DNA of 64,000 bases from Balanoglossus misakiensis (taxonomy: Eukaryota > Animalia > Hemichordata): NCBI GenBank assembly GCA_040954595.2, contig JBECUI020000027.1, positions 62,001 through 126,000 on the forward strand, read 5' to 3'. Below, piece by piece: positions 15,772 through 64,000 of the stretch (position 1 is its first letter; every line of letters starts with the position of its first letter). Position numbers and translations under genes: made by a program. A model generated the notes under the pieces. That model was not told the DNA's origin. It worked only from the letters and a program-made list of their open reading frames with translations, and searched no databases.

Positions 15772-15790
15772 TCTAATAAATTTTAATAGA
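15772..15790. promoter_or_regulatory. Candidate operator (copy 1)
   Basis: TCTAATAAA-t-TTTAATAGA near-palindrome, repeated at 18560-18578 upstream of the paralogous intact gene. Confidence 0.4.
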
Positions 15791-15848
15791 TTTTTTTAAT
15801 AGCGATCAATACCATTAAGTTCATAGCTTTTCCAGAAAAGGCACTCAA

Positions 15849-16420: not shown

Positions 16421-17362
16421 TTCACACTTCCCATTCCTAAAACGATGTGGGCTAATATGGTAGAGATAAAGAAAGCAAACTCTACCCCTCTTCACCCCCA
16501 CCTATTTCTTACCATGACTTTTCAGCTTCATAGCTAATTGCCACACCATTACAAACATCGCCGTTCTTGAACAACATCTCTTTGTTCTCCACCTGACTGT
16601 GGCGCAGCTAGATTCAAGCAAAGTGATAGTGGATATCCAAGGTATTGCCGGAACTATGCACACAGTGAACAAATCAACTTAAAATTTTTTCAGGCAACTG
16701 ACTTCTCCTGGAAAATCATCCTAAAAAGAAGAAACGAAAGACAGTTTGTCCAGCATTAATTTCCGTGTTGGCCATGGGCATATCAGGAATCATCGATTTT
16801 GCCTGTATTGGACACTCTTTGAGGATTCTATCGAGAATACTGACAGTCCTGTGCGGCCAGAGGCGTTGAAGTTTCGTCTCTGAAAAAAACCAAAAGATTT
16901 TTAGAATCTCAAGACAGCGTCTTCGAGTTGTCAGCTTCGGTGCAACTGTAATCTCATGTCTTTTCAAACCCCCAAGCATTTCGGTCCAACGGTAGGAGGG
17001 TTTCCCAGTAACATCGTTAACAGCCTGCAGTACCTTGTTCCCGGAGTTCTCCTCACTCTTCAGCAGGGGTTTACAACTCTCTGGTGCTATCCAGAAGGAC
17101 ATTGATGGGTATTCCAGCCACCCAGGAATTCTTGCTTAGAACCCGCCCTTGCCATACAGAGGAATAATCTTATCGACTCCTCTTCAGCCGAACTTTGTTG
17201 ACAAAAGATACGACCAATCCGAGGCATCTGTCGGTTATGCAAAACTGATTATTCTTAATCCCTGGGGTTTTCAGATGAGCAAAAAAGTTGTTCCATTAGC
17301 TTTACCTTCCTGCTCACTTTAAACAATGCCCACAACACGGTGATATCCGCTTTCCCAAAGGC

Positions 17363-17928
17363 TTATCCTACCAGAATGCTCAGATAGAGAACTTCTCCGC
17401 TCCATGAGTTTTTGAAAAACTGTTCCATCCAGATACGCCATTGATGAGTCGATTCCAACAGGTAACGAGTCTCTCTTAGATCTCCTGGTTCACATTGCTC
17501 ATTCTCGGAAGCACTTACCTTGATTTCCTCAAGAGTCTCGGTGATATCTTCAACTCTACACACGGAGACACCGGCTGAACACATTTCAACTAAGGCTTCT
17601 TCAACGGAAGTTTCCCGGCGTTTATAACGCTCAATAATTGCTGTTTCAAATGGAAGCCGAAGTAGGGACAGGTCGCGACCTGTCCCTACTCTGCAGTGAT
17701 ATCCAACTTCCTGGTGTAATGTCCGGCACGAGTAACTTTTTGTGCATACGTAGGTTCGTATTTTTCAGCCTGAAGTAAACTCTCTACCTCCGCATAGAGC
17801 ATGCCATTCAAGGTTGCCTCATACAGATTTCTTTAACCTATTGGGCTCACCTGGTTCTGCATGAGACCTACATCGAGCTGTATGTTCTTTCTGTATGGGT
17901 TTTCTTTGACTTCATTCTGTCTTCCCTG
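17363..17928 (-). mobile_element. IS256-family transposase remnant (5' part) containing one REP palindrome
   Basis: Translates to LPFETAIIERYKRRETSVEEAL..M.SAGVS..RVEDITE, typical of the IS256 N-terminus; homologous to the units at 24.4-29 kb. Confidence 0.85.
17661..17690. repeat. 30-bp perfect palindrome, GTAG-type REP-like element
   Basis: AGTAGGGACAGGTCGCGACCTGTCCCTACT is self-complementary. Confidence 0.85.
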
Positions 17929-18559
17929 TAGAATGGCTGATAGCCTACTATCTGGCCCTCTCCAGTTACGATCTACCGAGATCTTTGTAGCTATTCCTGA
18001 TAACTAAACTTGTCTATTTTTACCAACAAAAGCTTTGTATTTTTCAAGGTGTCCATCTGCTTCAGCCCTGACGGCATCCTATAATAACTTCTGAGTTCTT
18101 TGTTTAATAATTAGCCCAATGGGCTTAGATTTTTAATCGTTTCTGTACGTTCATAGAAAACTGGTTTTTAAGATGTCTATAAGAAGTTCTCCATTAATTC
18201 AGATAAATTCCACCACTGGATAAGAACTCTCGCCGGTAATCTTCTCCAGTTTGACCGGGTACACGAGAAAAAAGGCATTACCGCAAAACCAGGCAATTGC
18301 AAAAAATGTTATTTTTACAACTTTAAAAATAGGGGAAAGATTAATAGCGATTCGTGTTTCGGCAACAACATTGCTGCCTGAGTTAACTCTGTTAGCTTTG
18401 TGTTTAATTTCTTTGTCAAGATGATGGGAGTATGCCTGAGCTCTCCCCTATCACACATTTACCTATTTTTTATGCAAGTGCAGCATTAAAGGAATCAAAA
18501 GTTAAGTTTTTAAAAATAACTTCATTATCACAAGATATCACTTAAAAATATAAGAATTT

Positions 18560-24295: not shown

Positions 24296-24401
24296 AGTCA
24301 GTCATCCTGAAATAGTTGCTTACCCTTTTAACATTCCCACAACTTCTTAGAGAAAATTTGAGGGTAGTGAGAATCGTATTTCAGAACTCCATAGTCTTCT
24401 G

Positions 24402-27400
24402 GGTAGTGTTTAAAAATTGCGCAGATTCTAAAAAGGCAAAAAATGTCCTCCAAAGTTGAAATGGAATCGAATGCAAAACCATGCACACGGAGGACAAAAT
24501 GAGGTCAGAAAAAGACCCCTCGGGAAAGAGCATACAGATTGATGAAGGTCTCCTACAGAGCAGCCAAATGCTTAAAGAAACCGTAGGAGGAAACCTTGAA
24601 TGCCATGCTCAATGCGGAGGCAGATCCTTTACTTCAGGCTGAAAAATACGAACCTACGGATGCACAAAAAGTTACTCGTGCCGGACATTACACCAGGAAG
24701 TTGGAGATCACTGCTTTCAAGAGTAGGGACAGGTCGCGACCTGTCCCTACTTCGGCTTCCATTTGAAACAACAATTATTGAGCGTTATAAACGCCGGGAA
24801 ACATCCGTTGAAGAAGCCTTGGCCCTTTGGGGAAGCAAGGTAAAGCCCTGGGACAATGAGCAATTTGAACCAGGATCTCTTAGTAGGGACAGGTCGCGAC
24901 CTGTCCCTACTTCGGCAGCGACATAGTTGGATACGGAAAGGCTGTATTCGTTTTCTGCAATTTCCTTATTGTATACTAGTTTTGCGAGGTGTTTAATTGG
25001 TAGTGTTTAAAAATTGCGCAGATTCTAAAAAGGCAAAAAATGTCCTCCAAAGTTGAAATGGAATCAAAAGCAAAACCATGCACACGGAGGACAAAATGAG
25101 GTCAGAAAAGACCCCACGGGAAAGAGCATACAGATTGATGAAGGTCTCCTACAGAGCAGCCAAATGCTTAAAGAAACCGTAGGAGGAAACCTTGAATGCC
25201 ATGCTCAATGCGGAGGCAGATCCTTTACTTCAGGCTGAAAAATACGAACCTACGGATGCACAAAAAGATACTCGTGCCGGACATTACACCAGGAAGTTGG
25301 AGATCACTGCTTTCAAGAGCAGGGACAGGTCGCGACCTGTCCCTACTTCGGCTTCCATTCGAAACAGCAATTATTGAGCGTTATAAACGCCGGGAAACAT
25401 CCGTTGAAGAAGCCTTAGTTGAAGTGTATTTAGCTGGTGTTTCAGTGCGCCGAGTTAAAAATATTACCGAGGCGCACTTGGGGGAAGCAAGGTAAAGCCC
25501 TGGGACAATGAGCAATGTGAACCAGGATCTCTTAGTAGGGACAGGTCGCGACCTGTCCCTACTTCGGCAGCGACATAGTTGGATACGGAAAGGCTGTATT
25601 CGTTTTCTGCAATTTCCTTATTGTATACTAGTTTTGCGAGGTGTTTAATTGGTAGTGTTTAAAGAATTGCGCAGATTCTAAAAAGGCAAAAAATGTCCTC
25701 CAAAGTTGAAATGGAATCGAATGCAAAACCATGCACACGGAGGACAAAATGAGGTCAGAAAAAGACCCCACGGGAAAGAGCATACAGATTGATGAAGGTC
25801 TCCTACAGAGCAGCCAAATGCTTAAAGAAACCGTAGGAGGAAACCTTGAATGCCATGCTCAATGCGGAGGCAGATCCTTTACTTCAGGCTGAAAAATACG
25901 AACCTACGGATGCACAAAAAGATACTCGTGCTGGACATTACACCAGGAAGTTGGAGATCACTGCTTTCAAGAGCAGGGACAGGTCGCGACCTGTCCCTAC
26001 TTCGGCTTCCATTTGAAACAGCAATTATTGAGCGTTATAAACGCCGGGAAACATCCGTTGAAGAAGCCTTGGCCCTTTGGGGAAGCAAGGTAAAGCCCTG
26101 GGACAATGAGCAATTTGAACCAGGATCTCTTAGTAGGGACAGGTCGCGACCTGTCCCTACTTCGGCTTCCATTCGAAACAGCAATTATTGAGCGTTATAA
26201 ACGCCGGGAAACATCCGTTGAAGAAGCCTTGGTCCTTTGGGGAAGGCAAGGTAAAGCCCTGGGACAATGAGCAATTTGAACCAGGATCTCTTAGTAGGGA
26301 CAGGTCGCGACCTGTCCCTACTTCGGCAGCGACATAGTTGGATACGGAAAGGCTGTATTCGTTTTCTGCAATTTCCTTATTGTATACTAGTTTTGCGAAG
26401 TGTTTAATTGGTAGTGTTTAAAAATTGCGCAGATTCTAAAAAGGCAAAAAATGTCCTCCAAAGTTGAGATGGAATCGAATGCAAAACCATTCACACGGAG
26501 GACAAAATGAGGTCAGAAAAAGACCCCTCGGGAAAGAGCATACAGATTGATGAAGGTCTCCTACAGAGCAGCCAAATGCTTAAAGAAACCGTAGGAGGAA
26601 ACCTTGAATGCCATGCTCAATGCGGAGGCAGATCCTTTACTTCAGGCTGAAAAATACGAACCTACGGATGCACAAAAAGTTACTCGTGCCGGACATTACA
26701 CCAGGAAGTTGGATATCACTGCTTTCAAGAGTAGGGACAGGTCGCGACCTGTCCCTACTTCGGCTTCCATTCGAAACAGCAATTATTGAGCGTTATAAAC
26801 GCCGGGAAACATCCGTTGAAGAAGCCTTGGCCCTTTGGGGAAGCAAGGTAAAGCCCTGGGACAATGAGCAATGTGAACCAGGATCTCTTAGTAGGGACAG
26901 GTCGCGACCTGTCCCTACTTCGGCAGCGACATAGTTGGATACGGAAAGGCTGTATTCGTTTTCTGCAATTTCCTTATTGTATACTAGTTTTGCGAGGTGT
27001 TTAATTGGTAGTGTTTAAAAATTGCGCAGATTCTAGAAAGGCAAAAAATGTCCTCCAAAGTTGAAATGGAATCGAATGCAAAACCATGCACACGGAGGAC
27101 AAAATGAGGTCAGAAAAAGACCCCACGGGAAAGAGCATACAGATTGATGAAGGTCTCCTACAGAGCAGCCAAATGCTTAAAGAAACCGTAGGAGGAAACC
27201 TTGAATGCCATGCTCAATGCGGAGGCAGATCCTTTACTTCAGGCTGAAAAATACGAACCTACGGATGCACAAAAAGATACTCGTGCTGGACATTACACCA
27301 GGAAGTTGGAGATCACTGCTTTCAAGAGCAGGGACAGGTCGCGACCTGTCCCTACTTCGGCTTCCATTTGAAACAGCAATTATTGAGCGTTATAAACGCC

Positions 27401-28956
27401 GGGAAACATCCGTTGAAGAAGCCTTGGCCCTTTGGGGAAGCAAGGTAAAGCCCTGGGACAATGAGCAATTTGAACCAGGATCTCTTAGTAGGGACAGGTC
27501 GCGACCTGTCCCTACTTCGGCAGCGACATAGTTGGATACGGAAAGGCTGTATTCGTTTTCTGCAATTTCCTTATTGTATACTAGTTTTGCGAGGTGTTTA
27601 ATTGGTAGTGTTTAAAAATTGCGCAGATTCTAAAAAGGCAAAAAATGTCCTCCAAAGTTGAAATGGAATCAAAAGCAAAACCATGCACACGGAGGACAAA
27701 ATGAGGTCAGAAAAGACCCCACGGGAAAGAGCATACAGATTGATGAAGGTCTCCTACAGAGCAGCCAAATGCTTAAAGAAACCGTAGGAGGAAACCTTGA
27801 ATGCCATGCTCAATGCGGAGGCAGATCCTTTACTTCAGGCTGAAAAATACGAACCTACGGATGCACAAAAAGATACTCGTGCTGGACATTACACCAGGAA
27901 GTTGGAGATCACTGCTTTCAAGAGTAGGGACAGGTCGCGACCTGTCCCTACTTCGGCTTCCATTCGAAACAGCAATTATTGAGCGTTATAAACGCCGGGA
28001 AACATCCGTTGAAGAAGCCTTGGCCCTTTGGGGAAGCAAGGTAAAGCCCTGGGACAATGAGCAATTTGAACCAGGATCTCTTAGTAGGGACAGGTCGCGA
28101 CCTGTCCCTACTTCGGCAGCGACATAGTTGGATACGGAAAGGCTGTATTCGTTTTCTGCAATTTCCTTATTGTATACTAGTTTTGCGAGGTGTTTAATTG
28201 GTAGTGTTTAAAAATTGCGCAGATTCTAAAAAGGCAAAAAATGTCCTCCAAAGTTGAAATGGAATCAAAAGCAAAACCATGCACACGGAGGACAAAATGA
28301 GGTCAGAAAAAGACCCCACGGGAAAGAGCATACAGATTGATGAAGGTCTCCTACAGAGCAGCCAAATGCTTAAAGAAACCGTAGGAGGAAACCTTGAATG
28401 CCATGCTCAATGCGGAGGCAGATCCTTTACTTCAGGCTGAAAAATACGAACCTACGGATGCACAAAAAGTTACTCGTGCCGGACATTACACCAGGAAGTT
28501 GGATATCACTGCTTTCAAGAGTAGGGACAGGTCGCGACCTGTCCCTACTTCGGCTTCCATTTGAAACAACAATTATTGAGCGTTATAAACGCCGGGAAAC
28601 ATCCGTTGAAGAAGCCTTGGCCCTTTGGGGAAGCAAAATAAAGCCCTGGGACAATGAGCAATTTGAACCAGGATCTCTTAGTAGGGACAGGTCGCGACCT
28701 GTCCCTACTTCGGCTTCCATTTGAAACAACAATTATTGAGCGTTATAAACGCCGGGAAACATCCGTTGAAGAAGCCTTGGCCCTTTGGGGAAGGAAGGTA
28801 AAGCCCTGGGACAATGAGCAATGTGAACCAGGATCTCTTAGTAGGGACAGGTCGCGACCTGTCCCTACTTCGGCAGCGACATAGTTGGATACGGAAAGGC
28901 TGTATTCGTTTTCTGCAATTTCCTTATTGTATACTAGTTTTGCGAAGTGTTTAATT
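24402..28956 (+). repeat. Tandem array of 7 units (596-759 bp) of a degenerate IS256 left end with REP insertions
   Basis: Units start with GGTAGTGTTTAAA at 24402, 24999, 25651, 26410, 27007, 27604, 28200; each has a frameshifted IS256 5' fragment (LNAMLNAEAD..RAGHYTRKL..ERYKRRETSVEEAL) and 2-3 palindromes. Confidence 0.93.
24722..28869. repeat. 16 copies of the 30-bp REP-like palindrome AG(T/C)AGGGACAGGTCGCGACCTGTCCCTACT
   Basis: Starts at 24722, 24882, 25318, 25534, 25972, 26132, 26293, 26730, 26890, 27327, 27487, 27923, 28083, 28520, 28680, 28840. Confidence 0.9.
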
Positions 28957-29469
28957 GGTAGTGTTTAAAAATTGCGCAGATTCTAAAAAGGCAAGGATAC
29001 TAAAGCTCTTCATAAGCGACAGATGCATCGGGTTGGCCTGAATCCATCGAAGAGTTTTTCCCCAAAGCACGATGGCAACGATGCGTTGTTCACTATTACC
29101 GGAATGTATTCTCAGTAGTTCCCCGTGAGAAGGTCTGTGAAGTTGCAGCAATGCCTGAACAATTCATGCACAAGAAGATTGTGATGATGCTCTTGAGAAG
29201 GCTCAACTGATTGAAGGGAAACTCCGCATATGAAACTTCCCAAGGCTGCTGACATGGTGAGAAACTATATCCACGAAACTCTTGAGCATTTCCCCCGATG
29301 GGGATTCGGCCCTTATGCTATCAGCTGCCAGGCTCAGGCAGATCATGGGAACAAAATGGAGTACAGAAAAGTATTTGAATATGGACTTACTTAAAGCGAT
29401 AAGGCAAGATGCACGTTAGGCTCTTTCAACATTGGAGATTTGAAAGTGCGCAAAATTCTTGACACTACC
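28957..29469 (+). mobile_element. Internally deleted IS256 remnant with both terminal inverted repeats
   Basis: IRL GGTAGTGTTTAAAAATTGCGCA at 28957; IRR TGCGCAAAATTCTTGACACTACC at 29447-29469; decayed FPKARWQRCVVHYYRNV segment; no target-site duplication recognised. Confidence 0.8.
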
Positions 29470-43839: not shown

Positions 43840-44942
43840 AAACTTCAACTTTAAAGGTGGCTTTTATTGGAACCGGTCGCATTTCAGACCTACACGCTCT
43901 TGAATACATCGCCAATCCCAAGAGTCATATTGCCATACTCTGTGATCAAAATCAGGAAGCAGCAAAGAGCAAGGCTCAAACCTGGGGTTTGAAGGATTTC
44001 GAGATAGAAAGTGATTACCGTAAGGTTCTGCTTCGCAAAGACATCGATCTTGTCGAGATACTGTTACCGCATCATTTGCATAAAGCCGCAGCCCTGGCAG
44101 CCATTGAGGCAGGGAAAGCCGTCTCCCTGCAAAAACCCCTAGGTACAAATCTTGCTGAGGCAGAAGAGCTGCTCGGGGCGGTAAGGAAATCAAACTGCCC
44201 TTTCAGGGTTTTTGAGAACTTCATTTTCTATCCCCCGATTATGAAAGCCAGAGAGCTTCTTGAAGAAGGGGTCATAGGCGAACTTATGTCTATTCGCATC
44301 AAATCTAACCCAGGCTACAGCAAGACAGCCTGGAAGGTCCCTCCAGCATCCACTGCCTGGCGCCAGAACAGAAAAAGTTCTGGAGGAGGACCACTTGTTT
44401 TTGATGATGGCCACCATAAATTTGCCCTTGCCTGGTATTTTATGGGTAGCCCTGAGGAAGTGCATGCCTTTATTGGCCACACGGACCTGGGCGAGGGCCT
44501 GTATATGGATGCCCCATCCCAGATTAGCTTTCGTTTCCCTGGCCAGCGCATTGGTAATCTGGAGATTGTCTATTCTCCTGAGCTGGAGGTCCTGGGTAAT
44601 TACTATCCTCAGGATGATCGAGTGGAATTGACCGGCACAAAAGGGGTGCTTTGCATCAATGGCGGACATGGCCAATTAGCCGCTACCGCCCCCCTGCAAC
44701 TATACCGAGGAGCCAGGCTCAAGGAATACCACAACATCTCCACAGGTTGGCAGCATAGCTTCATTAATGCGACACGCCATTTCATTGATGCGCTTGAAAG
44801 CGGCTCAGAAGCCATGCTGACGGCTGAAAACGCCTGGGAAATTTTACGTTTTGCCCTGGCCGCTGAGCGTTCGGCGCATAGGGAACAAAGAGTTTTTTTG
44901 AATGAGATATCAACAAACTCTGCAGAAAAGGTGAACGAATGA
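43836..44942 (+). CDS. Gfo/Idh/MocA family oxidoreductase
   Basis: IGTGRIS, LPHHLH, LQKPL, GGGPLVFDDGHH. Confidence 0.9.
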   Translation: MKTSTLKVAFIGTGRISDLHALEYIANPKSHIAILCDQNQEAAKSKAQTWGLKDFEIESDYRKVLLRKDIDLVEILLPHHLHKAAALAAIEAGKAVSLQKPLGTNLAEAEELLGAVRKSNCPFRVFENFIFYPPIMKARELLEEGVIGELMSIRIKSNPGYSKTAWKVPPASTAWRQNRKSSGGGPLVFDDGHHKFALAWYFMGSPEEVHAFIGHTDLGEGLYMDAPSQISFRFPGQRIGNLEIVYSPELEVLGNYYPQDDRVELTGTKGVLCINGGHGQLAATAPLQLYRGARLKEYHNISTGWQHSFINATRHFIDALESGSEAMLTAENAWEILRFALAAERSAHREQRVFLNEISTNSAEKVNE

Positions 44943-46815
44943 AAGCTATTGAACTCCGCAGCGATGTGATACAGAAAAGGGCATGCCAAATAGTAAAACA
45001 AGGAGGACTGGAGCCCTGGATTGAATCATTAGAGAATAACGGACTGCTTGATATGCCCCTTGTCGAGGCCCTGGTGTTGGGACTGCTGCGGCAGGGCATA
45101 CGCAAGTATTTGGTAATTTTTGGTCATGGATCCACCGCCCTTGGCGAGGTGCTGCGCATTTATTCCAAGGAAAAATTGATTAAGTGTTTTTCTTTTCGTA
45201 ATGAAATCTCCATGGCCCACGCCGCGACCTCCCTTCGCTGGGTATTCGACGAACCGGTTGCCCTGGTCACTTCGATTGGTCCCGGTGCTCTGCAGGCCAT
45301 GTCCGCCTCCCTGGCAGCCAGTTCAAACGGCATCGGGGTTTATCACATTTATGGCGACGAGACAAGCGGCGGCGAAGGCTACAATATGCAGCAGATACCC
45401 AAGCCGGAGCAGGGACTGTTTGGCCAACTGACAGCAATAATGGGCCGGAGTTATACGCTCCACACCCCCATTGCCCTGAGAGAAGCCATGCGGCAGGGGG
45501 CAGCAACGGTGTTTCATCCGAGTCATGCCACTCCCTTCTTCATCAACCTTCCTCTCAACACACAGTGGGAATGTGTGCGGATACGTTTGGCCACCCTGCC
45601 TCAAAGACCAAAACAGGCCCCCCTTGTTACCGTCTGTGAGGATCGTTTTGACCAAGCGATCAAGCGTATAAAAGCTCATAAAAAATAGCCATAAAAATCG
45701 GCCGGGGAGCGGGGGGATGTGCTGCTGAGCTTAGAGAGTTGGTTGAGAAATCGGGAGCTGTGGCGGTACTGAGTCCTGGTTCCACTGGAGCCCTGGCAGA
45801 TGCTCACAAGCAAAACATGCATGTTGGTGGTTCTAAAGGATCCATCAGCGGTAATTTCGCCATGGACAATGCGGAATTATTGATTGTCATAGGCTCCCGA
45901 GCCGTTTGCCAGAGTGATTGTTCTGGCATCGGCTGGCCCAGGGTCTCTGAGGTTATTAACATCAACACCGATCTTATAGATGCCCATCACTACCACAACA
46001 CAACAGCGCTTGTCGGTGATGCCAAAGAAACCCTGAAGCGCCTTGTTCAAGGTCTTGACGAACTTCGCGAGCAGTCCACAGATTGGTTGAAGGCCTGTGC
46101 TGAGGCCAAAGACAAATGGCAAAATCTCCTACGGGAACGCAGCACTGGAAGGGGAAAGTTGGATGTTGTATGGGGACGTGAGGTACTCACCCAACCCCAG
46201 GCCATTCATGTTGTGGCGGAATTCTGCAAACAACAGGAAGCGCTTAAGTTCTTTGATGCCGGGGACGTGCAGGCTAACGGATTTCAGATTGTTACGGATG
46301 ACAAGCTCGGAACGACCTTTACAGAATCGGGGGCTTCTTACATGGGTTTTGCCGTTTCGGCCCTGACGGCTTTGGGTATTGCCGATAGGAAATGCTATGG
46401 GGTGGCCTTTACTGGTGACGGATCTTTCATGATGAATCCTCAGGTCCTAATCGACGGTGTAGAACACGGTGCCCATGCCACCATTGCTCTTTTTGACAAT
46501 AGGCGTATGGGAGCCATCAGTGCCTTGCAGCTAGCCCAGTTCGGCTTTGATTTTCAAACCAACGATCATGTTGATATTGACTATGTCAAGTTGGCCAGTG
46601 CCGTGTCGGGTGTTAAAGCTTTATTTGGTGGTTATGACCGCCAAAGTCTTATCTCGGCTCTGAAGGAGGCAAAAGCGTATAAGGGAATCAGCCTCATACA
46701 TATTCCGGTTTATTTTGGTAAGGATCCCACGGGTAGTATGGGGGCGTATGGACAATGGAATGTCGGAAACTGGAGTGCTGCGGTCCAGGAGAAATATCTG
46801 CAATCAAGAATCTGA
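44939..46815 (+). pseudogene. TPP-dependent enzyme (IolD-like), one frameshift
   Basis: IFGHG, RNE..MAHAA, TSIGPGA (IolD-like N-terminus) and GDGSF..N..DN TPP motif; one extra A in the A6 run at 45680-45685 would join the two ORFs. Confidence 0.8.
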
Positions 46816-53092: not shown

Positions 53093-54590
53093 TTAATTAT
53101 CCAAAATAATCAATTCGAACACATGAAATTGTGGCATATAGTCATCAACAGAGAACCTCCAGGTACCCTCTAGTGACGTTACTATAGTGGGAATTTGTAG
53201 GCAAAAATAGGTATTGGGTCTACTTCCAAAAGCTGTTTCATCTCCCAATACATCAGCATTAACAACTGTACTACCAAAAATACCATATCCATCAGATATG
53301 ACGCTCAGTGTGGGTGTTTCTTGAGTGTAATAAGGGGAAACGTTTTTCGTAGCATAAGTCCTTATTACACCTGGAATGATTATTGTTTGTCCCAAATATG
53401 CTTTAACGTCTCTTCCTATGCTTCCCCAATCCTGAGATTCTGCCAAGGTGGTAGCGATTGATAGGGATTGATCACTTTTGTATTGCGATCCACCCTCATA
53501 TTCTATGCCCATATACAGGTTGTATTCTGTTTCCGGAGTAAGATTTAAAATGGGCATCCATTGAGCTTTGTTTTTTTGCAAATTATACGTTTGCCACAAA
53601 GGGGTAGCTGCCTTTAAAGCCCCTATATCTACGGGAGCTGAGGCAGTTTTGGGCAGGGCAATAGCGTATATAACAGCATTTTGTACATCCACCTGCAGTT
53701 CGGCGTAACCTACCCAGAGGTAAGAACCGGGTTGTGTATGATCGTTCATATCACCAGTAGAAAAAGTTAAAAAAGGAGTATAGCGAAGGCGCAGAATATA
53801 TTCTCCAATAGTTCCGTTTTCGGCAGTAATAACTACGGTTTGGTCTTCTTCCACTACGGCAAAATCCTCTTTCAATAAAGGAATATTGAGTGCTGACAAA
53901 TTTGTTTGTGGTTCCCCGTCCAATGACAGCGTAGCATTTTGGGAGATTTCAAAGGATAGACCCACGACATCAGCCGTGGTGTTATAATCGTAATTGACCT
54001 GAATTGTCCTATTAGAAAATTCAACCACTACAGAAGGATCTAAAGAAGACACACCGGCAATAAGGGCTTCTGTATTCGGAATATAAACTATTTTTAGCGT
54101 GTACTCATTGATCGTTTGTCCGTCTTCGGCAATTACCTTTATGAGAAGGGTTTTACTTGAGGTTAAATCAAAAGTGTATTGATTGTTATCGACGAGTGTT
54201 CCATCTATTTCCAGGCTAGCTCCAGCTGAGATGTCGAACATAAGGGTAGCGTTGTTTATTTCCGTTTCATAGGAACGTGTAAGTGTGATGATTTTCTGAC
54301 CTTCATCAAAATCGACAGCAGTCTGCATTGTTTCGTCGGTCAAACTGACCGTGGAAATGGCTGCTTGGTCCGACTTAGGCAGGTTACAGGAGAAAAGAAC
54401 CATGACTATTCCGAGAACAAGAGAGGCAAAACTGAGCTTATGCCGGATTAACTTAGATAACGATCTTCGTGCGCGTGGAGGGGGGTGAGTGAGTGAGTGA
54501 GTGAGTGAGTGAGTGAGTGAGTGAGTGAGTGAGTGAGTGAGTGAGTGAGTTTTTACTCACTTCACAGCCGTTTTGATGGATATGTTTCAT
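53093..54590 (-). CDS. Phase-variable surface lipoprotein (locus 1; two cadherin-like/DUF5018-type domains plus FN3-like domain), out of frame
   Basis: True ATG at 54590 behind GAGGA; (ACTC)16 in the leader; signal RRSLSKLIRHKLSFASLVLGIVMVLFSC; ATG-to-body distance 187 nt; two V.AE.G...EY.L motifs. Confidence 0.8.
54487..54550 (-). repeat. (ACTC)16 simple sequence repeat in the leader of locus 1
   Basis: 64 nt of GAGT on the + strand; G6 tract adjacent. Confidence 0.97.
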
Positions 54591-54606
54591 TGCATTTTCC
54601 TCATCT

Positions 54607-54682
54607 TATATAGAATTTATTTCAGGGTAAGCCAAGTACCCTTTAACCTTGATAGTTTAACACAGTTATTGCTGCTTATCTA
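54607..54682 (-). promoter_or_regulatory. Two candidate sigma70 promoters in the shared lipoprotein module (repeated upstream of loci 2-4)
   Basis: TAGATA-N17-TAAACT with extended TGn (54682-54654) and TTGGCT-N17-TATATA (54635-54607). Confidence 0.5.
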
Positions 54683-54889
54683 CACCCTTTCCTTGTTTGT
54701 CTATTTTTTTGCTTCTAGGGGGGATAGTGCGGAGCTTGGTTTATGGTTCAATCGGCCTAGGATTCCTGAACTTGCCTGAACCTTTTTAAAAAGGCAGCAC
54801 CTAAGCGATGTCTTGGGGGAAGCGATTGGTTATTCTTAGTCCGATTCCGCCATCTGGAGGCTGGGGCGGGGCCTTAAGGGTTGGCGGGC

Positions 54890-55557
54890 CCTACCTCCCG
54901 GGCCGCCGGGGGCTAAACCGAGCCACACAGCCCCGGGGACGCCGACTCCCGAAGCGGCACCGGCATCGCTGGACCGAAGCAGGCGGGGCCTTAAAGTTTA
55001 GTGCCCACTACCCTCCGGGCCGCCAGGGGCTAAACCGAACCACACAGCCTCGGGGACGACGCCTCACGAAGCGGCACCAGCATCGCTGGACCGAAGCAGG
55101 CGGGGCCTTAAAGTTTAGTGCCCCAGGGCCTGCCGGGGCTAAACCGAACCACACAGCCTCGGGGAGGCCGCCTCACGAAGCGGCACCGGCATCGCTGGAC
55201 CGACACAGGCGGGGCCTTAAAGTTTAGTGCCCCCGGGCCGCCGGGGCTAAACCGAGCCACACAGCCTCGGGGAGACCGCCTCACGAAGCGGCACCGGCAT
55301 CGCTGGACCGAAGCAGGCGGGGCCTTAAAGTTTCGTGCCCACTACCCTCCGGGCCCGCCGGGGCTAAACCGAAGACCACAGCCTCGGGGACGCCGCCTCA
55401 CGAAGCGACACCAGCATCGCTGGACCGAAGCAGGCGGGGCCTTAAAGTTTAGTGCCCACTACCCTCCGGGCCGCCAGGGGCTAAACCGAACCACACAGCC
55501 TCGGGGAGGCCGCCTCACGAAGCGGCACCGGCATCGCTGGACCGAAGCAGGCGGGGC
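54890..55557. repeat. Array of 6 GC-rich 108-117 bp units
   Basis: GCTAAACCG anchors at 54912, 55029, 55138, 55246, 55363, 55480. Confidence 0.93.
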
Positions 55558-55563
55558 TCTTGT

Positions 55564-57181
55564 CTATTCGGTTAGATAATCGCTTTCTCCCGTGTAGTTT
55601 ACCGCCTTTACCCGGTATGTTAATCCCTGCCATTTCTGCACGTCATGAAAGCTAAGCTCCTGAGTATACTCACCTTCAGCGTTATATGCCGACACAACAC
55701 CAAGGCTCAGCCAGGACTCCCCTCCGTCTCTGCTGTACTCCACGACATAGCCCGAAGGCGCATCGGTATCCACCGTGATGGCGTTAGTAGAATAGGGTGT
55801 GTAGACTGTTCTTTGGTTAAGAGATGAAGCTGTCCAACTCAACTGGTAACCGTTGTTGTAATTCACACCTAAACCGCTCGGCGACGGGGGAACTAAGGGA
55901 CTCGTATAGATACTGTATAAGAAGTTAGCACGCTCCCCTGCAAAAAATAAGTCTATATACAGGTAAAATCTATAGGCAAAGTTTGGTAAATCTTCACTTT
56001 GGATAACATTCCTCTCATCTTCTAAAATATTAGCACCAATCGCTGGAGTCTCAAAATCTTTCCAATAGATATACTCACTGGCAGAATAGGCATCGACCCG
56101 ATTCTGACTAGCAAGACTACGGGGAGTCGCTCCATTGACCAAGCTTTCTTTTGCATCAAAAAATCTGAGGTCATAGAGGGAGGCATCGGCATCCGGACCC
56201 CCTGTAAATCCCTTTGTTACCCCAAAATTCCATATCATATCGGTAATGCTGGGGGCCAATGTCTCCACCGTCAATCGAGCATAGGCAGGAACATAACCGA
56301 GGTTATCTCTGTCGAACCAGGGCTTTGTGTATTCCTTTGTTAGTCCATAGAAGCCTCCTGTAGTTCCAACTAAGGAAAGGTTTAGTCTTGCGGCATAGGT
56401 GGAAACCTTAAGGGATGCAGAAGTTTGCGTTTCTCCCTGGGCGTTTTTGGAAACTATCCTGTAGTGATATTGCGTTCCCCCCTGTAGTGAATCATCTTCA
56501 TACGTTTCTGCAGAAAGATTCTCAGCCAGGGTTTCCCACCTTGTAGCGTCTACAGAGCGTTCAACGGCGTAACTTGAGGTGCTCGCGTCTATGCTCCGCC
56601 AGGCTATTTTTATCTGATCAGCGCTTACGAACATGGGCTGGAGACCGACCACGGGTAAGAACTGCGCTGGGGTAAAAGCTTTGATACTCTTTAACGTGTA
56701 GGTGCTTTCCTCTCCGTTCTCAGCAGTGATGATAATCGTGTAGCTTTGGTCATTATCTGAAAAGTCAAAACGATATTGGTTGGAGCTAATGATTTCGTCA
56801 TTGATAGATAGTGTGGCCTTCTGCGAGATATCAAAGATCAAAACAACATGGGTGGCTGTGGCTTCATCAGTGCGGCTAAGGGTGATGGTTTTGCTTGTTT
56901 CATCAAGTTCTACTCTGACGCCAAGGGTGTCGCTTTGGGGGGCGACCGTGTTAATGAAAGATTGATCCGACTTAGGTAGGTCACAGGAGAAAAAAACCAT
57001 GACTATTCCGAGAACAAGAGAGGCAAAACTGAGCTTATGCTGGATTAACTTAGATAACGATCTTCGTGCGCGTGGATGGGTGAGTGAGTGAGTGAGTGAG
57101 TGAGTGAGTGAGTGAGTGAGTGAGTGAGTGAGTGAGTGAGTTTTTACTCACTTCACAGCCGTTTTGATGGATATGTTTCAT
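55564..57181 (-). CDS. Phase-variable surface lipoprotein paralogue A (cadherin-like, FN3, variable domain, FN3), out of frame
   Basis: ATG 57181; (ACTC)15; lipobox FFSC; distance to body ATG 181 nt; FN3 motifs W....SY.VERS.D...W and Y.D..L..GT.Y.YRI. Confidence 0.85.
57082..57141 (-). repeat. (ACTC)15 simple sequence repeat in the leader of locus 2
   Basis: 60 nt of GAGT. Confidence 0.97.
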
Positions 57182-57483
57182 TGCATTTTCCTCATCTTAT
57201 ATAGAATTTATTTCAGGGTAAGCCAAGTACCCTTTAACCTTGATAGTTTAACACAGTTATTGCTGCTTATCTACACCCTTTCCTTGTTTGTCTATTTTTT
57301 TGCTCCTAGGGGGGGGGATAGTGCGGAGCCTAGTTGATGGTTCAATCGGCCTAGGATTCCTGAACTTGCCTGAACCTTTTTAAAAAGGCAGCACCTAAGC
57401 GATGTCTTGGGGGAAGCGATTGGTTATTCTTAGGCCGATTCCGCCATCTGGAGGCTGGGGCGGGGCCTTAAGGGTTGGCGGGC

Positions 57484-58020
57484 CCTACCTCCCGGGCCGC
57501 CGGGGGGCTAAACCGAGCCACAGAGCCTCGGGGACGACGCCTCACGGAGCGGCACCAGCATCGCTGGACCGAAGCAGGCGGGGCCTTAAAGTTTAGTGCC
57601 CCCGGGCCCGCCGGGGCTAAACCGAGCCACACAGACTCGGGGAGGCCCGCCTCACGAAGCGACACCAGCATCACTGGACCGACACAGGCGGGGCCTTAAA
57701 GTTTAGTGCCCCCGGGCCCGCCGGGGCTAAACCGAGCCACACAGACTCGGGGAGGCCGCCTCACGAAGCGACACCAGCATCGCTGGACCGAAGCAGGCGG
57801 GGCCTTAAAGTTTAGTGCCCCCGGGGCTGCCGGGGCTAAACCGAGCCACACAGCCTCGGGGACGACGCCTCCAGAAGCGGCACCAGCATCGCTGGACCGA
57901 AGCAGGCGGGGCCTTAAAGTTTAGTGCCCCCGGGCCCGCCAGGCTAAACCGAGCCACACAGCCTCGGGGAGACCGCCTCACGAAGCGGCACCGGCATCGC
58001 TGGACCGAAACAGGCGGGGC
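57484..58020. repeat. Array of 5 GC-rich 108-110 bp units
   Basis: Anchors at 57507, 57616, 57726, 57835, 57943. Confidence 0.93.
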
Positions 58021-58026
58021 TCTTGT

Positions 58027-59648
58027 CTATTCAGTTAGATAATCGCTTTCTCCCGTGTAGTTTACTGCCTTTACCCGGTATGTTAATCCCTGCCATTTCT
58101 GCACGTCATGAAAGCTAAGCTCCTGAGTATACTCACCTTCAGCGTTATATGCCGACACAACACCAAGGCTCAGCCAGGACTCCCCTCCGTCTCTGCTGTA
58201 CTCCACGACATAGCCCGAAGGCGCATCGGTATCCACCGTGATGGCGTTACTAGAATAGGGTGTGTAGACTGTTCTTTGGTTAAGAGATGAAGCTGTCCAA
58301 CTCAACTGGTAACCGTTGTTGTAATTCACTCCTAAACCGCTCGGCGACGGGGGAGCTAAGGGACTCGTATAGATACTGTATGAGAAATAAGCACTCTCCC
58401 CTGCAAAAAAGAAGTTTACAAATAGGTTAAATCTATAAGCAAAATTGGGTAAATCTTCACTTTGGATGACATTACTCTCATCTTCTAAAATATTAGTGCC
58501 AATATGTGGAATCTCAAAATCTTTCCAATAGATATACTCACTGGCAGAATAGGCATCGACCCGTTGCTGAGTAGCAAGAGCACGGTAAGTCGCTCCATTA
58601 ACCAAGCTTTCTTTTGCATCATAAAATTGGATTATATAGAGGAAGGCATCGTTATCCGCCCCCCCTGTAAATCCCTTTGTTACCCCAAAATTCCATATCA
58701 TATCGGTAATGCTGGGGGCCAATGTCTCCACCGTCAATCGAGAATAGGCAGGAGCATACTTGTTGGCTTCTGATAGATCAGCTACCCAGGGCTTTGTGTA
58801 TTCCTTTGTTAGTCCATAGGTCCCTCCGCTCCCTCCGCTTCCTCGAGAGTAAGTGGAAACCTTAAGGGATGCAGAAGTTTGCGTTTCTCCTTGGGAGTTT
58901 TTGGAAACTATCCTGTAGTGATATTGCGTTCCCGCCTGTAGTGAATCATCTTCATACGTTTCTGCAGAAAGATTCTCAGCCAGGGTTTCCCACGTTGTGC
59001 CATCTGCAGAGCGTTCCACGGCGTAACTTGAGGTACTTGCGTCTATGCTCCGCCAGGCTATTTTTACCTGATCAGCGCTTACGAACATGGGCTGGAGACC
59101 GACCACGGGTAAGAACTGCGCTGGGGTAAAAGCTTTGATATTCTTTAACGTGTAGGTGCTTTCCTCTCCATTCTCAGCAGTGATGATAATCGTGTAGCTT
59201 TGGTCATTATCTGAAAAGTCAAAACGATATTGGTTGGAGCTAATGATTTCGTCATTGATAGATAGCGTGGCCTTCTGCGAGATATCAAAGATCAAAACAA
59301 CATGGGTGGCTGTGGCTTCACCAGTGCGGCTAAGGGTGATGGTTTTGCTTGTTTCATCAAGTTCTACGGTGACGCCAAGGGTGTCGCTTTGGGGGGCGAC
59401 CGTGTTAATGAAAGATTGATCCGACTTAGGTAGGTCACAGGAGAAAAAAACCATGACTATTCCGAGAACAAGAGAGGCAAAACTGAGCTTATGCTGGATT
59501 AACTTAGATAACGATCTTCGTGCGCGTGGAGTGAGTGAGTGAGTGAGTGAGTGAGTGAGTGAGTGAGTGAGTGAGTGAGTGAGTGAGTGAGTGAGTGAGT
59601 GAGTGAGTTTTTACTCACTTCACAGCCGTTTTGATGGATATGTTTCAT
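58027..59648 (-). CDS. Phase-variable surface lipoprotein paralogue B, out of frame
   Basis: ATG 59648; (ACTC)20; distance to body ATG 194 nt; most divergent central domain. Confidence 0.85.
59529..59608 (-). repeat. (ACTC)20 simple sequence repeat in the leader of locus 3
   Basis: 80 nt of GAGT. Confidence 0.97.
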
Positions 59649-59949
59649 TGCATTTTCCTCATCTTATATAGAATTTATTTCAGGGTAAGCCAAGTACCCT
59701 TTAACCTTGATAGTTTAACACAGTTATTGCTGCTTATCTACACCCTTTCCTTGTTTGTCTATTTTTTTGCTCCTAGGGGGGGGATAGTGCGGAGCTTGGT
59801 TTATGGTTCAATCGGCCTAGGATTCCTGAACTTGTCTGAACCTTTTTAAAAAGGCAGCACCTAAGCGATGTCTTGGGGGAAGCAATTGGTTGTTCTTAGG
59901 CCGATTTCGCCATCTGGAGGCTGGGGCGGGGCCTTAAGGGTTGGCGGGC

Positions 59950-60820
59950 CCTACCTCCCGGGCCGCCAGGGGCTAAACCGAGCCACACAGACTCGGGGAC
60001 GACGCCTCACGAAGCGGCACCAGCATCGCTGGACCGACACAGGCGGGGCCTTAAAGTTTAGTGCCCCCGGGCTGCCGGGGCTAAACCGAAGACCACAGCC
60101 TCGGGGACGACGCCTCACGAAGCGACACCAGCATCGCTGGACCGAAGCAGGCAGGGCCTTAAAGTTTAGTGCCCCGGGCTGCCGGGGCTAAACCGAGCCA
60201 CACAGCCTCGGGGACGCCGACTCCAGAAGCGGCACCGGCATCGCTGGACCGACACAGGCGGGGCCTTAAAGTTTAGTGCCCCCGGGCTGCCGGGGCTAAA
60301 CCGAACCACACAGCCTCGGGGACGCCGACTCCCGAAACGGCACCGGCATCGCTGGACCGACACAGGCGGGGCCTCAAAGTTTAGTGCCCCGGGCTGCCGG
60401 GGCTAAACCGAGCCACACAGCCTCGGGGAGGCCGCCTCCAGAAGCGGCACCGGCATCGCTGGACCGAAGCAGGCGGGGCCTTAAAGTATAGTGCCCCCGG
60501 GCTGCCGGGGCTAAACCGAGCCACACAGCCTCGGGGAGGCCGCCTCACGAAGCGGCACCGGCATCGCTGGACCGAAACAGGCGGGGCCTTAAAGTTTAGT
60601 GCCCACTACCCCCGGGCCGCCGGGAGCTAAACCGAGCCACACAGCCTCGGGGACGACGCCTCACGAAGCGGCACCGGTATCGCTGGACCGAAGCAGGCGG
60701 GGCCTTAAAGTTTAGTGCCCACTACCCCCCGGGTCACCAGGGGCTAAACCGAGCCACACAGCCTCGGGGACGACGCCTCACGAAGCGGCACCAGCATCGC
60801 TGGACCGACACAGGCGGAGC
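59950..60820. repeat. Array of 8 GC-rich 107-117 bp units
   Basis: Anchors at 59972, 60080, 60187, 60295, 60402, 60510, 60626, 60743. Confidence 0.93.
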
Positions 60821-60826
60821 TCTTGT

Positions 60827-62445
60827 CTATTCGGTTAGATAATCGCTTTCTCCCGTGTAGTTTACCGCCTTTACCCGGTATGTTAATCCCTGCCATTTCT
60901 GCACGTCATGAAAGCTAAGCTCCTGAGTATACTCACCTTCAGCGTTATATGCCGACACAACACCAAGGCTCAGCCAGGACTCCCCTCCGTCTCTGCTGTA
61001 CTCCACGACATAGCCTGAAGGGGCGTCGGTATTCACGGTAATGGCGTTAGTAGAATAGGGTGTGTAGACTGTTTTTTGGTTAAGAGATGAAGCTGTCCAA
61101 CTCAACTGGTAACCGTTGTTGTAATTCACTCCTAACCCGCTCGGCGACTGGGGAGCTAAGGGACTCGTATAGATACTGTATAAGAAGTTAGCACGCTCCC
61201 CTGCAAAAAATAAGTCTATATACAGGACAAATCTATAGGCAAAATTTGGTAAATCTTCACTTTGGATAACATTACTCTCATCTTCTAAAATATTAGCGCC
61301 AATCTTTTGAGTCCCAAGATCTTTCCAATAGATATACTCACTGGCAGAATAGGCATCGACCCGTTGCTGAGTAGCAAGAGTACGGGGAGTCGCTCCATTG
61401 ACCAAGCTTTCTTTTGCATCAAAAAATGTGAGTTCATAGATGGAGGCATCGGCATGCGGCCCCCCTGTAAATCCCTTTGTTACCCCAAAATTCCATATCA
61501 TATCGGTAATGCTGGGGGCCAATGTCTCCACCGTCAATCGAGCATAGGCAGGAGCATAACCGAGGTTATCTCTGTCGAACCAGGGCTGCGTGTATTCCTT
61601 TGTTAGTCCATAGAAGCCTCCTGTAGTTCCAACTAAGGAAAGGTTTAGTCTTGCGGCATAGGTGGAAACCTTAAGGGATGCAGAAGTTTGCGTTTCTCCT
61701 TGGGCGTTTGTGGAAACTATCCTGTAGTGATATTGCGTTCCCGACTGTAGTGAATCATCTTCATACGTTTCTGCAGAAAGATTCTCAGCCAGGGTTTCCC
61801 ACCTTGTAGCGTCTGCAGAGCGTTCCACGGCGTAACTTAAAGTACTTGCGTCTATGCTCCGCCAGGCTATTTTTATCTGATCAGCGCTTACGAACATGGG
61901 CTGGAGACCGACCACGGGTAAGAACTGTGCTGGGGTAAAAACTTTGATACTCTTTAACGTGTAGGTGCTTTCCTCTCCGTTCTCAGCAGTGATGATAATC
62001 GTGTAGCTTTGGTCATTATCTGAAAAGTCAAAACGATATTGGTTGGAGCTAATGATTTCGTCATTGATAGATAGCGTGGCCTTCTGCGAGATATCAAAGA
62101 TCAAAACAACATGGGTGGCTGTGGCTTCATCAGTGCGGCTAAGGGTGATGGTTTTGCTTGTTTCATCAAGTTCTACGGTGACGCCAAGAGTGTCGCTTTG
62201 GGGGGCGACCGTGTTAATGAAAGATTGATCCGACTTAGGTAGGTCACAGGAGAAAAAAACCATGACTATTCCGAGAACAAGAGAGGCAAAACTGAGCTGG
62301 GGCCGGATTAACTTAGATAACGATCTTCGTACGCGTGGAGGGGGTGAGTGAGTGAGTGAGTGAGTGAGTGAGTGAGTGAGTGAGTGAGTGAGTGAGTGAG
62401 TGAGTTTTTACTCACTTCACAGCCGTTTTGATGGATATGTTTCAT
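60827..62445 (-). CDS. Phase-variable surface lipoprotein paralogue C, out of frame
   Basis: ATG 62445; (ACTC)15 plus G5 tract; distance to body ATG 182 nt. Confidence 0.85.
62346..62405 (-). repeat. (ACTC)15 simple sequence repeat in the leader of locus 4
   Basis: 60 nt of GAGT. Confidence 0.97.
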
Positions 62446-62747
62446 TGCATTTTCCTCATCTTATATAGAATTTATTTCAGGGTAAACCAAGTACCCTTTA
62501 ACCTTGATAGTTTAACACAGTTATTGCTGCTTATCTACACCCTTTCCTTGTTTGTCTATTTTTTTGCTCCTAGAGGGGGGATAGTGCGGAGCTTGGTTTA
62601 TGGTTCAATCGGCCTAGGATTCCTGAACTTGCCTGTACCTTTTTAAAAAGGCAGCACCTAAGCGATGTCTTGGGGGAAGCGATTGGTTATTCTTAGGCCG
62701 ATTCCGCCATCTGGAGGCTGGGGCGGGGCCTTAAGGTTAGGATGGGC

Positions 62748-62964
62748 CTTACCCCCCGGGCCGCCAGGGGCTAAACCGAGCCACACAGCCTCGGGGACGC
62801 CGCCTCACGGAGCGACACCAGCATCGCTGGACCGAAACAGGCGGGGCCTTAAAGTTTAGTGCCCACTACCCTCCGGGCCGCCAGGGGCTAAACCGAACCA
62901 CACAGCCCAGGGGAGACAACATCACGAAGCGGTACCGGCATCGCTGGACCGAAACAGGCGGGGC
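62748..62964. repeat. Array of 2 GC-rich 117 bp units
   Basis: Anchors at 62770 and 62887. Confidence 0.9.
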
Positions 62965-62970
62965 TCTTGT

Positions 62971-64000
62971 CTATTCGGTTAGATAATCGCTTTCTCCAGT
63001 GTAGTTTACTGCCTTTACCCGGTATATCAATCCCTGCCATCTCTGCACGTCATGAAAGCTAAGCTCCTGAGTATACTCACCTTCAGCGTTATATGCCGAC
63101 ACAACACCAAGGCTCAGCCAAGACTCCCCTCCGTCTCTGCTGTACTCCACGACATAGCCCGAAGGCGCATCGGTATCCACCGTGATGGCGTTACTAGAAT
63201 AGGGTGTGTAGACTGTTTTTTGGTTAAGAGATGAAGCTGTCCAACTCAACTGGTAACCGTTGTTGTAATTCACTCCTAAACCGCTCGGCGACGGGGGAAC
63301 TAAGGGACTCGTATAGATACTGTATAAGAATTTAGCACTATTCCCTGCAAAAAATAAGTCTATATACAGGTAAAATCTATAGGCAAAGTTTGGTAAATCT
63401 TCACTTTGGATAACATTCCTCTCATCTTCTAAAATATTAGTGCCACTATCTTGACTCCCAAAATCTTTCCAATAGATATACTCACTGGCAGAATAGGCAT
63501 CGACCCGATTCTGACTAGCAAGAGGACGGGGAGTCGCTCCATTGACCAAGCTTTCTTTTGCATCAAAAAAGTCGACTTGATAGAGGGAGGCATCGGCATG
63601 CGGCCCCCCTGTAAATCCCTTTGTTACCCCAAAATTCCATATCATATCGGTAATGCTGGGGGCCAATGTCTCCACCGTCAATCGAGCATAGGCAGGAGCA
63701 TAACCGAGGTTATATCTGTCGAACCAGGGCTTTGTGTATTCCTTTGTTAGTCCATAGGATTGTGCATCTCCAGCTAAGGAAATGTTTAGTCTTGCGGCAT
63801 AGGTGGAAACCTTAAGGGATGCAGAAGTTTGCGTTTCTCCTTGGGCGTTTTTGGAAACTATCCTGTAGTGATATTGCGTTCCCGACTGTAGTGAATCATC
63901 TTCATACGTTTCTGCAGAAAGATTCTCAGCCAGGGTTTCCCACGTTGTAGCGTCTGCAGAGCGTTCAACGGCGTAACTTGAGGTACTTGCGTCTATGCTC
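62971..64000 (-). CDS. Surface lipoprotein paralogue D, 5' end outside the window
   Basis: Frame stays open upstream of the ORF-track TTG at 63681 (..KVSTYAARLNISLAGDAQSYGLTKEY..) and the DNA aligns with paralogues A-C to the window edge. Confidence 0.88.
   Translation of the reverse strand, partial: SIDASTSSYAVERSADATTWETLAENLSAETYEDDSLQSGTQYHYRIVSKNAQGETQTSASLKVSTYAARLNISLAGDAQSYGLTKEYTKPWFDRYNLGYAPAYARLTVETLAPSITDMIWNFGVTKGFTGGPHADASLYQVDFFDAKESLVNGATPRPLASQNRVDAYSASEYIYWKDFGSQDSGTNILEDERNVIQSEDLPNFAYRFYLYIDLFFAGNSAKFLYSIYTSPLVPPSPSGLGVNYNNGYQLSWTASSLNQKTVYTPYSSNAITVDTDAPSGYVVEYSRDGGESWLSLGVVSAYNAEGEYTQELSFHDVQRWQGLIYRVKAVNYTGESDYLTE

Follow-up and report, generated by a model that had tools for sequence, protein, structure and literature searches.

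A locus-specific minisatellite of a spirochaete-like bacterium in a predicted Opa-like locus for lipoprotein variation

Introduction

The known systems of antigenic variation in spirochaetes (vls, vsp/vlp and tprK) combine one expression site with silent donors, and bacterial variable-number tandem-repeat (VNTR) minisatellites consist of head-to-tail intergenic units in variable copy number. Here we describe a tandem repeat of 107-117 bp that lies in four arrays among predicted surface lipoprotein genes, at the right end of a 64,000-nucleotide stretch (the window: forward-strand positions 62,001 to 126,000 of contig JBECUI020000027.1, assembly GCA_040954595.2, deposited as the hemichordate Balanoglossus misakiensis). 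The MurC encoded in the window shares no more than 61% identity with its best matches, and the matches that name an organism are mostly Spirochaetaceae, Spirochaetales or Spirochaeta; judged from sequence, the host is an undescribed spirochaete-like bacterium. The repeat is a real and hitherto undescribed locus-specific minisatellite in a predicted Opa-like lipoprotein variation locus.

Two neisserial systems offer the closest comparison. The opa genes carry a pentamer switch in the leader peptide, and their variable segments reassort by recombination (PMC3960869), while the Neisseria intergenic mosaic elements (NIMEs), arrays of dRS3 and RS (repeat sequence) elements, adjoin variable surface genes and have been proposed as recombination substrates (PMC1797815). 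By analogy, our locus appears to work like opa combined with NIME arrays, an Opa-style frameshift switch in each gene being joined to NIME-like arrays, but by sequence or host it belongs to none of the systems compared. Like opa, it contains multicopy surface-protein paralogues, each frameshifted by a simple repeat in the leader region; it differs in that the repeat is the tetramer TCAC and the genes encode predicted Fn3 lipoproteins placed head-to-tail, whereas opa genes carry a pentamer, encode beta-barrels and lie at separate loci (PMC3960869), and in that its protein family has no relatives that our searches found. Like NIMEs, the arrays are non-coding and dynamic, with a short CCC/GGG inverted repeat of variable center and 50-150-bp elements in between (PMC1797815); the copy number here runs from 2 to 8, the units are mosaic, and variable predicted lipoprotein genes lie alongside. 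In contrast to the more than 100 RS families of Neisseria, however, there is a single 78-nt core with alleles, and the junction is unlike the dRS3 motif (PMC1797815). In addition, the repeat is confined in the window to one gene family, and the host is spirochaete-like rather than Neisseria, the genus beyond which NIMEs have not been observed according to PMC1797815.

The downstream homology sequence (DHS) of the Borrelia hermsii vsp/vlp genes is likewise a downstream extragenic inverted-repeat element that serves gene conversion among variable spirochaete lipoprotein genes, yet it is a single 214-bp element in a system of one expression site and silent archives (PMC6011951), whereas here tandem units follow genes 2-5 and each gene keeps an upstream region and a frameshift switch. 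Repertoires of simple sequence repeats (SSRs) are mentioned for Treponema pallidum in a phase-variation review, whose available part does not describe such an array (PMC11868660), and a literature search on spirochaete lipoprotein phase variation by tetranucleotide or other SSRs, with most subscription papers outside its reach, returned only general or unrelated papers. The locus also differs from a VNTR in that alleles pass between the units of all four arrays, and these units accompany a single gene cassette. If our reading is correct, the frameshift switch and the arrays would have originated independently in this lineage, for which the closest MurC shows 61% identity, and the locus would suggest a lifestyle that faces a host or phages.

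Tandem lipoprotein cassettes with a frameshift switch

At its right end the window consists of head-to-tail cassettes of ~2.5 kb that are 90-94% identical to one another, each in the order upstream region, gene, array (Table 1). The proteins of genes 2-5 share 89-95% identity, and each has an Fn3 domain; in gene 2 a beta-sandwich is accompanied by Fn3, a variable central domain and what is probably a second Fn3-like region. Gene 1 shares the 5' region of the other genes (42% identity to gene 2 over the first 107 aa). The listed open reading frames (ORFs) begin at an internal Met directly before a Cys, and the frame upstream encodes a basic and then a hydrophobic stretch, which probably represents a lipoprotein signal peptide. 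A shared ATG lies ~185 nt upstream of the listed starts, and 42 nt after it begins a (TCAC)15-19 tract, located in the signal-peptide region ahead of both the hydrophobic stretch and the Cys. These four tracts are the sole long simple repeats in the window and vary in length between paralogues (15, 15, 16 and 19 copies). In 4/4 genes with a visible 5' end the shared ATG and the gene body lie in different frames, as read from one assembly in which tract consensus errors are possible. As in opa, the frame of each of these four genes is set by a simple repeat of non-triplet unit length in the 5' part of the coding sequence, and this TCAC frameshift switch, overlooked by an earlier sequence-only reading of the same DNA, defines the locus.

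Table 1. Coordinates of the lipoprotein locus (positions in the window)
Feature	Position	Strand	Remarks
Gene 1, predicted lipoprotein	53093..54590	-	cadherin-like domain, different body; out of frame at TCAC tract
Gene 2, predicted lipoprotein	55564..57181	-	out of frame at TCAC tract
Gene 3, paralogue	58027..59648	-	89% identical to gene 2; most divergent central domain; out of frame
Gene 4, paralogue	60827..62445	-	95% identical to gene 2; out of frame
Gene 5, paralogue	62971..64000	-	92% identical over visible part; 5' end outside window
(TCAC)16 tract, gene 1	54485..54550	-	42 nt after ATG
(TCAC)15 tract, gene 2	57080..57141	-	
(TCAC)19 tract, gene 3	59529..59608	-	
(TCAC)15 tract, gene 4	62344..62405	-	
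Upstream region of gene 1, likely promoter	54591..54864	-	copies at 57182-57458, 59649-59924, 62446-62721
Array 1, lead + 6 units	54865..55557	.	tandem-repeat and motif scans
Array 2, lead + 5 units	57459..58020	.	tandem-repeat and motif scans
Array 3, lead + 8 units	59925..60820	.	tandem-repeat and motif scans
Array 4, lead + 2 units	62722..62964	.	tandem-repeat and motif scans
Canonical G-quadruplex motif	54863..54888	+	left edge of array 1; four G3+ runs, loops 1/6/5; repeated at 57457 and 59923
Short junction resembling type I-E CRISPR repeat (example)	60061..60088	+	6-bp stem, 4-nt loop, 8-nt tail
Further short junctions of I-E likeness	55227, 60169, 60276, 60384, 60491		weaker: 57596, 57706, 57815

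Amino-acid change is concentrated in a central region of ~170 aa. Among genes 2, 4 and 5 the proportion of non-synonymous differences in the central domain (pN, 0.049-0.090) nominally exceeds that of synonymous ones (pS, 0.021-0.032), a comparison based on 2.5-4 synonymous changes per pair; in pairs with gene 3, central pN is about equal to pS. The flanks show pN of 0.004-0.027, below pS, and pS reaches 0.04-0.12 in the conserved gene parts. Over the length of gene 2, 19 informative sites show each of the three paralogues in turn as its closest match, and the gene bodies are shown to be mosaic.

The four copies of the upstream region diverge by just 1.5-2.5%. A G9 run at 57309 and a G8 run at 59776 lie within two of them, their counterparts in the remaining cassettes being shorter or broken up; these runs are possibly a second, transcriptional switch.

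All inferences on the locus come from one genome. That the cassettes are an assembly artefact is scarcely credible: the paralogues differ coherently at the codon level and keep long frames intact, every unit is different, and in sequencing run X1 a 94-nt contig covering the common signal-peptide region has a depth of 95.9, against 10.3 for the single-copy flank. The artefact gains some room from the fact that no independent sample holding the locus was listed, the best run, X1, being itself perhaps the source sample. The depth ratio hints at about nine or ten gene copies, depth not being equal to copy number. At 53975-54403, short X1 contigs of single-copy depth show as many as 13 differences from gene 1 over 151 bases and stem either from another gene-1-like paralogue, located elsewhere, or from another strain.

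The repeat arrays

The count, grouping and lengths given by the sequence-only reading, 21 units in arrays of 6, 5, 8 and 2, were correct; the 17 complete periods measure 117 (five), 116 (one), 110 (one), 109 (three), 108 (five) and 107 bp (two), and the Tandem Repeats Finder scores of the arrays are 339-1271. Each array indeed ends 6 nt short of the TAG that closes the minus-strand gene on its right (4/4), but the true starts lie ~25 nt further left than first placed, as each array opens with a diverged partial lead unit of the long type. Both array ends coincide with one identical 8-bp GC-rich word, and long and short units differ by ~9 nt, located in the junction. Searches of the 64 kb with core motifs (up to 2 mismatches) found no further unit copies, three of the four motifs matching the arrays only, on the + strand, and the fourth, a short one, adding scattered single matches; within the window, the copies stand beside this gene family only. 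The bulged stem proposed for the unit junctions is well formed only in short units and is broken on the + strand by an A in 7/21 junctions. Similarly, the statement that there are no unique spacers holds in the sense used for clustered regularly interspaced short palindromic repeats (CRISPR), but all 21 cores are distinct alleles, with a mean identity of 91%. One core, that of unit 8, measures 79 nt; this unit was excluded from the alignment-fold test, and one of its bases was ignored when it was aligned for the allele analysis.

Substitutions in the unit cores (54912-62964) are strand-biased, the A allele lying on the + strand in 22 of 28 variable columns and T in 3 (counted by eye), and the window has no GC skew strong enough to account for this.

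Arrays 1-3 (3/4) are edged by a canonical G-quadruplex (G4) motif, which is reduced to G2 runs at the edge of array 4 in cassette 4; elsewhere in the window either strand has only one canonical G4 (loops up to 7). G4 DNA has reportedly been linked to pilE variation and proposed for vls variation; because the three copies count as one event, however, we regard the motif as a lead only.

Exchange among units and its explanation

The 21 distinct cores are assembled from few common alleles. Four-gamete incompatibility was observed in 52/136 informative site pairs and in 0/17 of the pairs within 4 nt; the core distance is 6.3 within arrays versus 6.8 between arrays (p=0.16), indicating no clustering by array, and adjacent cores are not more similar than random (p=0.41). 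Since plain slippage would leave neighbors alike and neighboring cores show no such likeness beyond chance, units exchange sequence within and between arrays, or mutate recurrently. Unit divergence amounts to ~8.5%, which is close to the synonymous level of the conserved gene parts and exceeds the divergence of the upstream regions three- to fourfold, consistent with DNA under weak constraint.

Our data suggest a model, which we hold to have about an even chance of being right, whereby the unit is a non-coding intergenic minisatellite and a likely recombination substrate in a predicted phase- and antigenic-variation locus of surface lipoproteins. The cassette anatomy, the frameshifted TCAC tracts, the mosaic genes and units and the array lengths of 2-8 units are shown directly. 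In the model, TCAC slippage would switch single genes on and off in an Opa-like manner; RecA-type unequal crossover and gene conversion between near-identical units would resize arrays and shuffle alleles; the units may supply downstream crossover points, leading to cassette duplication and exchange of 3' gene segments, in the manner of NIMEs and DHS; new central-domain variants would be retained by selection; and, more speculatively, the G4 motif and junction hairpins might raise the local recombination rate. We count in its favor that gene 1, which has no array after its stop, has a different body, and that the units show neither covariation nor folding beyond that of shuffles (see below). 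The earlier proposal that the units are recombination substrates driving cassette duplication and shuffling is accordingly supported for the units themselves, by the four-gamete pairs and the lack of closer resemblance within arrays and between neighbors, while the driving of gene shuffling is a step that we infer.

Several points weigh against this model. Genes that are 90-95% identical can recombine without arrays, and any effect of the arrays on gene recombination belongs to the inferred step just named. Recurrent mutation could partly explain the four-gamete patterns, and junction types, unlike cores, are slightly more similar between neighbors (p=0.034). The core is 78 nt in 20/21 units despite multi-base changes, and 0/9 columns vary in the 9 nt around the junction tail, both of which hint at a constraint that the model leaves unexplained. 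To these are added the possible errors in the tract consensus, the small synonymous counts behind the central pN excess and its disappearance in pairs with gene 3.

A neutral passenger is a serious but clearly lesser possibility: a GC-rich intergenic segment would have been amplified by slippage, be carried along with the cassettes and turn over without any gene function. Its main support is the ready tandem amplification seen elsewhere in the window in eight ~600-bp copies of an IS256-family remnant, and divergence near the synonymous level and the absence of covariation and excess folding (see below) agree with it. However, slippage would leave neighbors alike, which neighboring units are not, and the arrays are retained in 4/4 cassettes with a fixed core length and an invariant junction tail.

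Tests for structured RNA, termination and coding

The sequence-only reading had suggested an array-encoded structured RNA or a transcriptional insulator, and neither is supported by our results. RNAalifold predicted 19 pairs, 0 of which have a compensatory change, and a direct count on 16 pairs also gave 0, equal to shuffles, the power of these covariation tests being low with units that are 91% identical paralogues. Folding is no better than shuffles: single units give a mean z of -1.28 to +0.09 that varies with strand, register and parameters, and the core alignment compared with column-shuffled controls gives z of -0.54 on the + strand and +0.14 on the - strand. An Rfam search of the unit returned sub-threshold matches only; the same search also missed a control CRISPR array and is therefore uninformative for CRISPR. 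An apparent avoidance of the stems by common variants was rejected, since it disappeared against column-shuffled controls. The A>G variant of the CCAGC/GCTGG hairpin does give a G-U pair on the + strand (11 G-U, 10 A-U), as had been noted, but the conclusion drawn from it about the strand fails: the G>A of the first hairpin (7/21 units) and the junction A (7/21) give G-U on the minus strand only, so variants on opposite strands leave the units naming no strand.

A related explanation, which we consider very unlikely, places a structure resembling repetitive extragenic palindromic (REP) elements at the 3' end of the gene's own mRNA, where it would stabilize the message or insulate the next cassette. 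The fixed place 6 nt past the stop (4/4) would suit such a role, as would the slightly better folding of the minus strand in one register (mean z -1.28, 5/21 below -2), but the minus strand has no terminator-like site in 52.4-64 kb, its consensus fold has z of only +0.1, and the role needs no copy number of 2-8.

As the sequence-only reading argued, the unit lengths speak against coding, with 7/17 periods shifting the frame. A repeat peptide, whether a read-through tail of the lipoprotein or the product of a + strand ATG, could still be imagined because 108 and 117 are divisible by three (10/17 periods) and the single open minus-strand core frame continues the gene's frame past the TAG. We nonetheless find coding highly improbable: variants in that frame comprise 5 synonymous and 20 non-synonymous changes and 1 stop, long units are interrupted by a stop in that frame, TAG serves as a normal stop codon (12/33 genes), and the + strand ORFs of 64-139 aa are unconserved.

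Relation to type I-E CRISPR repeats

Stand-alone CRISPR-like repeats have been described mostly as two-repeat mini-arrays in cas loci, and CreA/CreR mini-arrays resemble our short junctions in their hairpin and 8-nt tail, degenerate lone repeats of this kind yielding regulatory RNAs (bioRxiv 10.1101/2023.03.03.530964, 10.1101/2023.03.10.532045). They differ from our element, which has a period of 107-117, allelic spacers and 2-8 copies, no cas gene or target found in the window, and a weak score. A literature search for a tandem-amplified type I-E CRISPR repeat with identical spacers serving as a minisatellite, again with most subscription papers outside its reach, returned none.

A loose two-junction pattern retrieved 91 metagenome loci, none of them unit-like by blastn at E <1, and one is a true CRISPR array with a junction-like repeat whose relatives adjoin annotated type I-E cas operons. 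In a covariance model of 39 outside repeats, drawn from 26 of 80 fetched loci picked as multi-copy arrays, nine short junctions were the top nine matches in 64 kb (11-14.5 bits, E 0.08-0.8); one further junction followed at E 6.6, so that 10/21 junctions were reported at E up to 10 and 11/21 were not. Intact true I-E repeats score 38-48 bits and degenerate terminal ones 22-26. With an ungapped repeat profile, for which 4 of 19 loci lacked an array, the score was reached by 34/5000 shuffles. A gapped score, designed after the match had been seen, gave the short junction 24.9 (true range 23.9-39.8; 0/6000 shuffles), whereas that of the long junction was reached by 117/6000. Locus L092 was omitted from the training sets. 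The 8-nt tail of the short junction is present in 1/36 training repeats.

These results bear on a further explanation, that the junction derives from a type I-E repeat and that a + strand antisense transcript is cut by Cas6e into RNAs of 107-117 nt, each with an 8-nt handle and a polymorphic first 32 nt resembling a guide, which would act as regulatory guides or Cas decoys. It is favored by the I-E geometry of the short junction and the related repeats beside I-E cas operons, by the top-nine rank and the shuffle results, and by the invariance of the tail together with the greater variability of the unit's first 32 nt (18/32 columns vs 10/37 in the rest, p=0.016). We consider it unlikely as a whole. 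The bit scores fall far below those of true repeats, more than half of the junctions are missed, the gapped score is post hoc, and the long junctions, perhaps ancestral, score poorly; because the lead units belong to the long type, the best-matching short form may be derived and the match partly accidental. Moreover, the period is 107-117 with 91% identical cores, rather than 61 with unique 32-nt spacers, and the element is not a CRISPR array. Guide targets in the window reach best identities of 18-22/32, against a null mean of 19.4 and maximum of 21, and a CreA/CreR-type seed match of at least 10 nt next to a protospacer-adjacent motif in a promoter was not found within the window: seed runs are 7-10 for 20/21 units, and the one run of 14 (null 99th percentile 13) lies inside a metabolic gene. 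No cas family was detected among the 35 + 10 ORFs scanned in the window.

Separately, an origin of the junction from a type I-E repeat, or its mimicry of one, is a tentative and rather doubtful proposition, and its function as a Cas6 substrate is improbable. The same low standing applies to an elaborated form, in which Cas6e-cut antisense RNAs of 107-117 nt with guide-like heads would, together with the edge G4, steer lipoprotein silencing or gene conversion. If the CRISPR explanation were true, Cas6 processing would be connected with antigenic variation, which would gain a CRISPR-derived control layer.

Homologue searches and other elements

The exact core pattern had no match in metagenomes, such patterns missing diverged relatives, and its one single-copy match in genomes, in an Eisenbacteria metagenome-assembled genome, was taken as chance. 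Junction patterns gave 0 matches in viral contigs, and blastn with the unit gave 1 match of 29 nt at E 0.1 in plasmids and 0 in phages. The protein search yielded one Fn3-only match among 7998 scored candidates; no relatives of the central domain were present among 327 candidates, nor in NCBIfam. Matches in the PDB are Fn3 and beta-sandwich chains only, and whole-protein Atlas matches score below 0.9; central-domain matches at 0.94 to capsid-fragment clusters, of low recognition, were weak and not used. The structure predictions are of low confidence (pLDDT 40.5 and 30.7).

Three known element types were compared with the locus by their usual definitions and rejected. For an integron attC site, judged by inspection, CTAAAC/GTTTAG could serve as R boxes, but the inner L pairing is missing; the unit lacks the GTAG-footed palindrome of REP elements and bacterial interspersed mosaic elements (BIMEs) and is not dispersed in the window; and the C-terminal, adenine-only variation expected of a diversity-generating retroelement target does not fit that found here, which is central, with indels and purine-ending codons. 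Neither an integrase nor a reverse transcriptase was found among the scanned ORFs of the window.

The IS256/Mutator-family transposase remnants mentioned above form a second tandem array at 24400-29000 (eight copies of ~600 bp with a nested 160-bp sub-repeat). This array contains 16 copies of a perfect 28-30-bp palindrome starting GTAG, with another at 17661-17690 by an insertion sequence (IS)-like remnant; the palindrome is a REP-like element amplified with IS debris and fits the REP/BIME definition. A gene for a thiamine pyrophosphate-dependent enzyme at 44939-46815 appears split into two ORFs, and a 3-kb stretch at 15600-18500 has no ORF of 150 aa; both are likely pseudogenes. Among the retrieved metagenome loci, ten (L004, L015, L016, L020, L026, L076, L081, L084, L088 and L089) share a ~170-bp palindromic family with paired inverted end boxes and differing flanks; these elements resemble miniature inverted-repeat transposable elements or attC sites and are unrelated to the unit of the lipoprotein locus.

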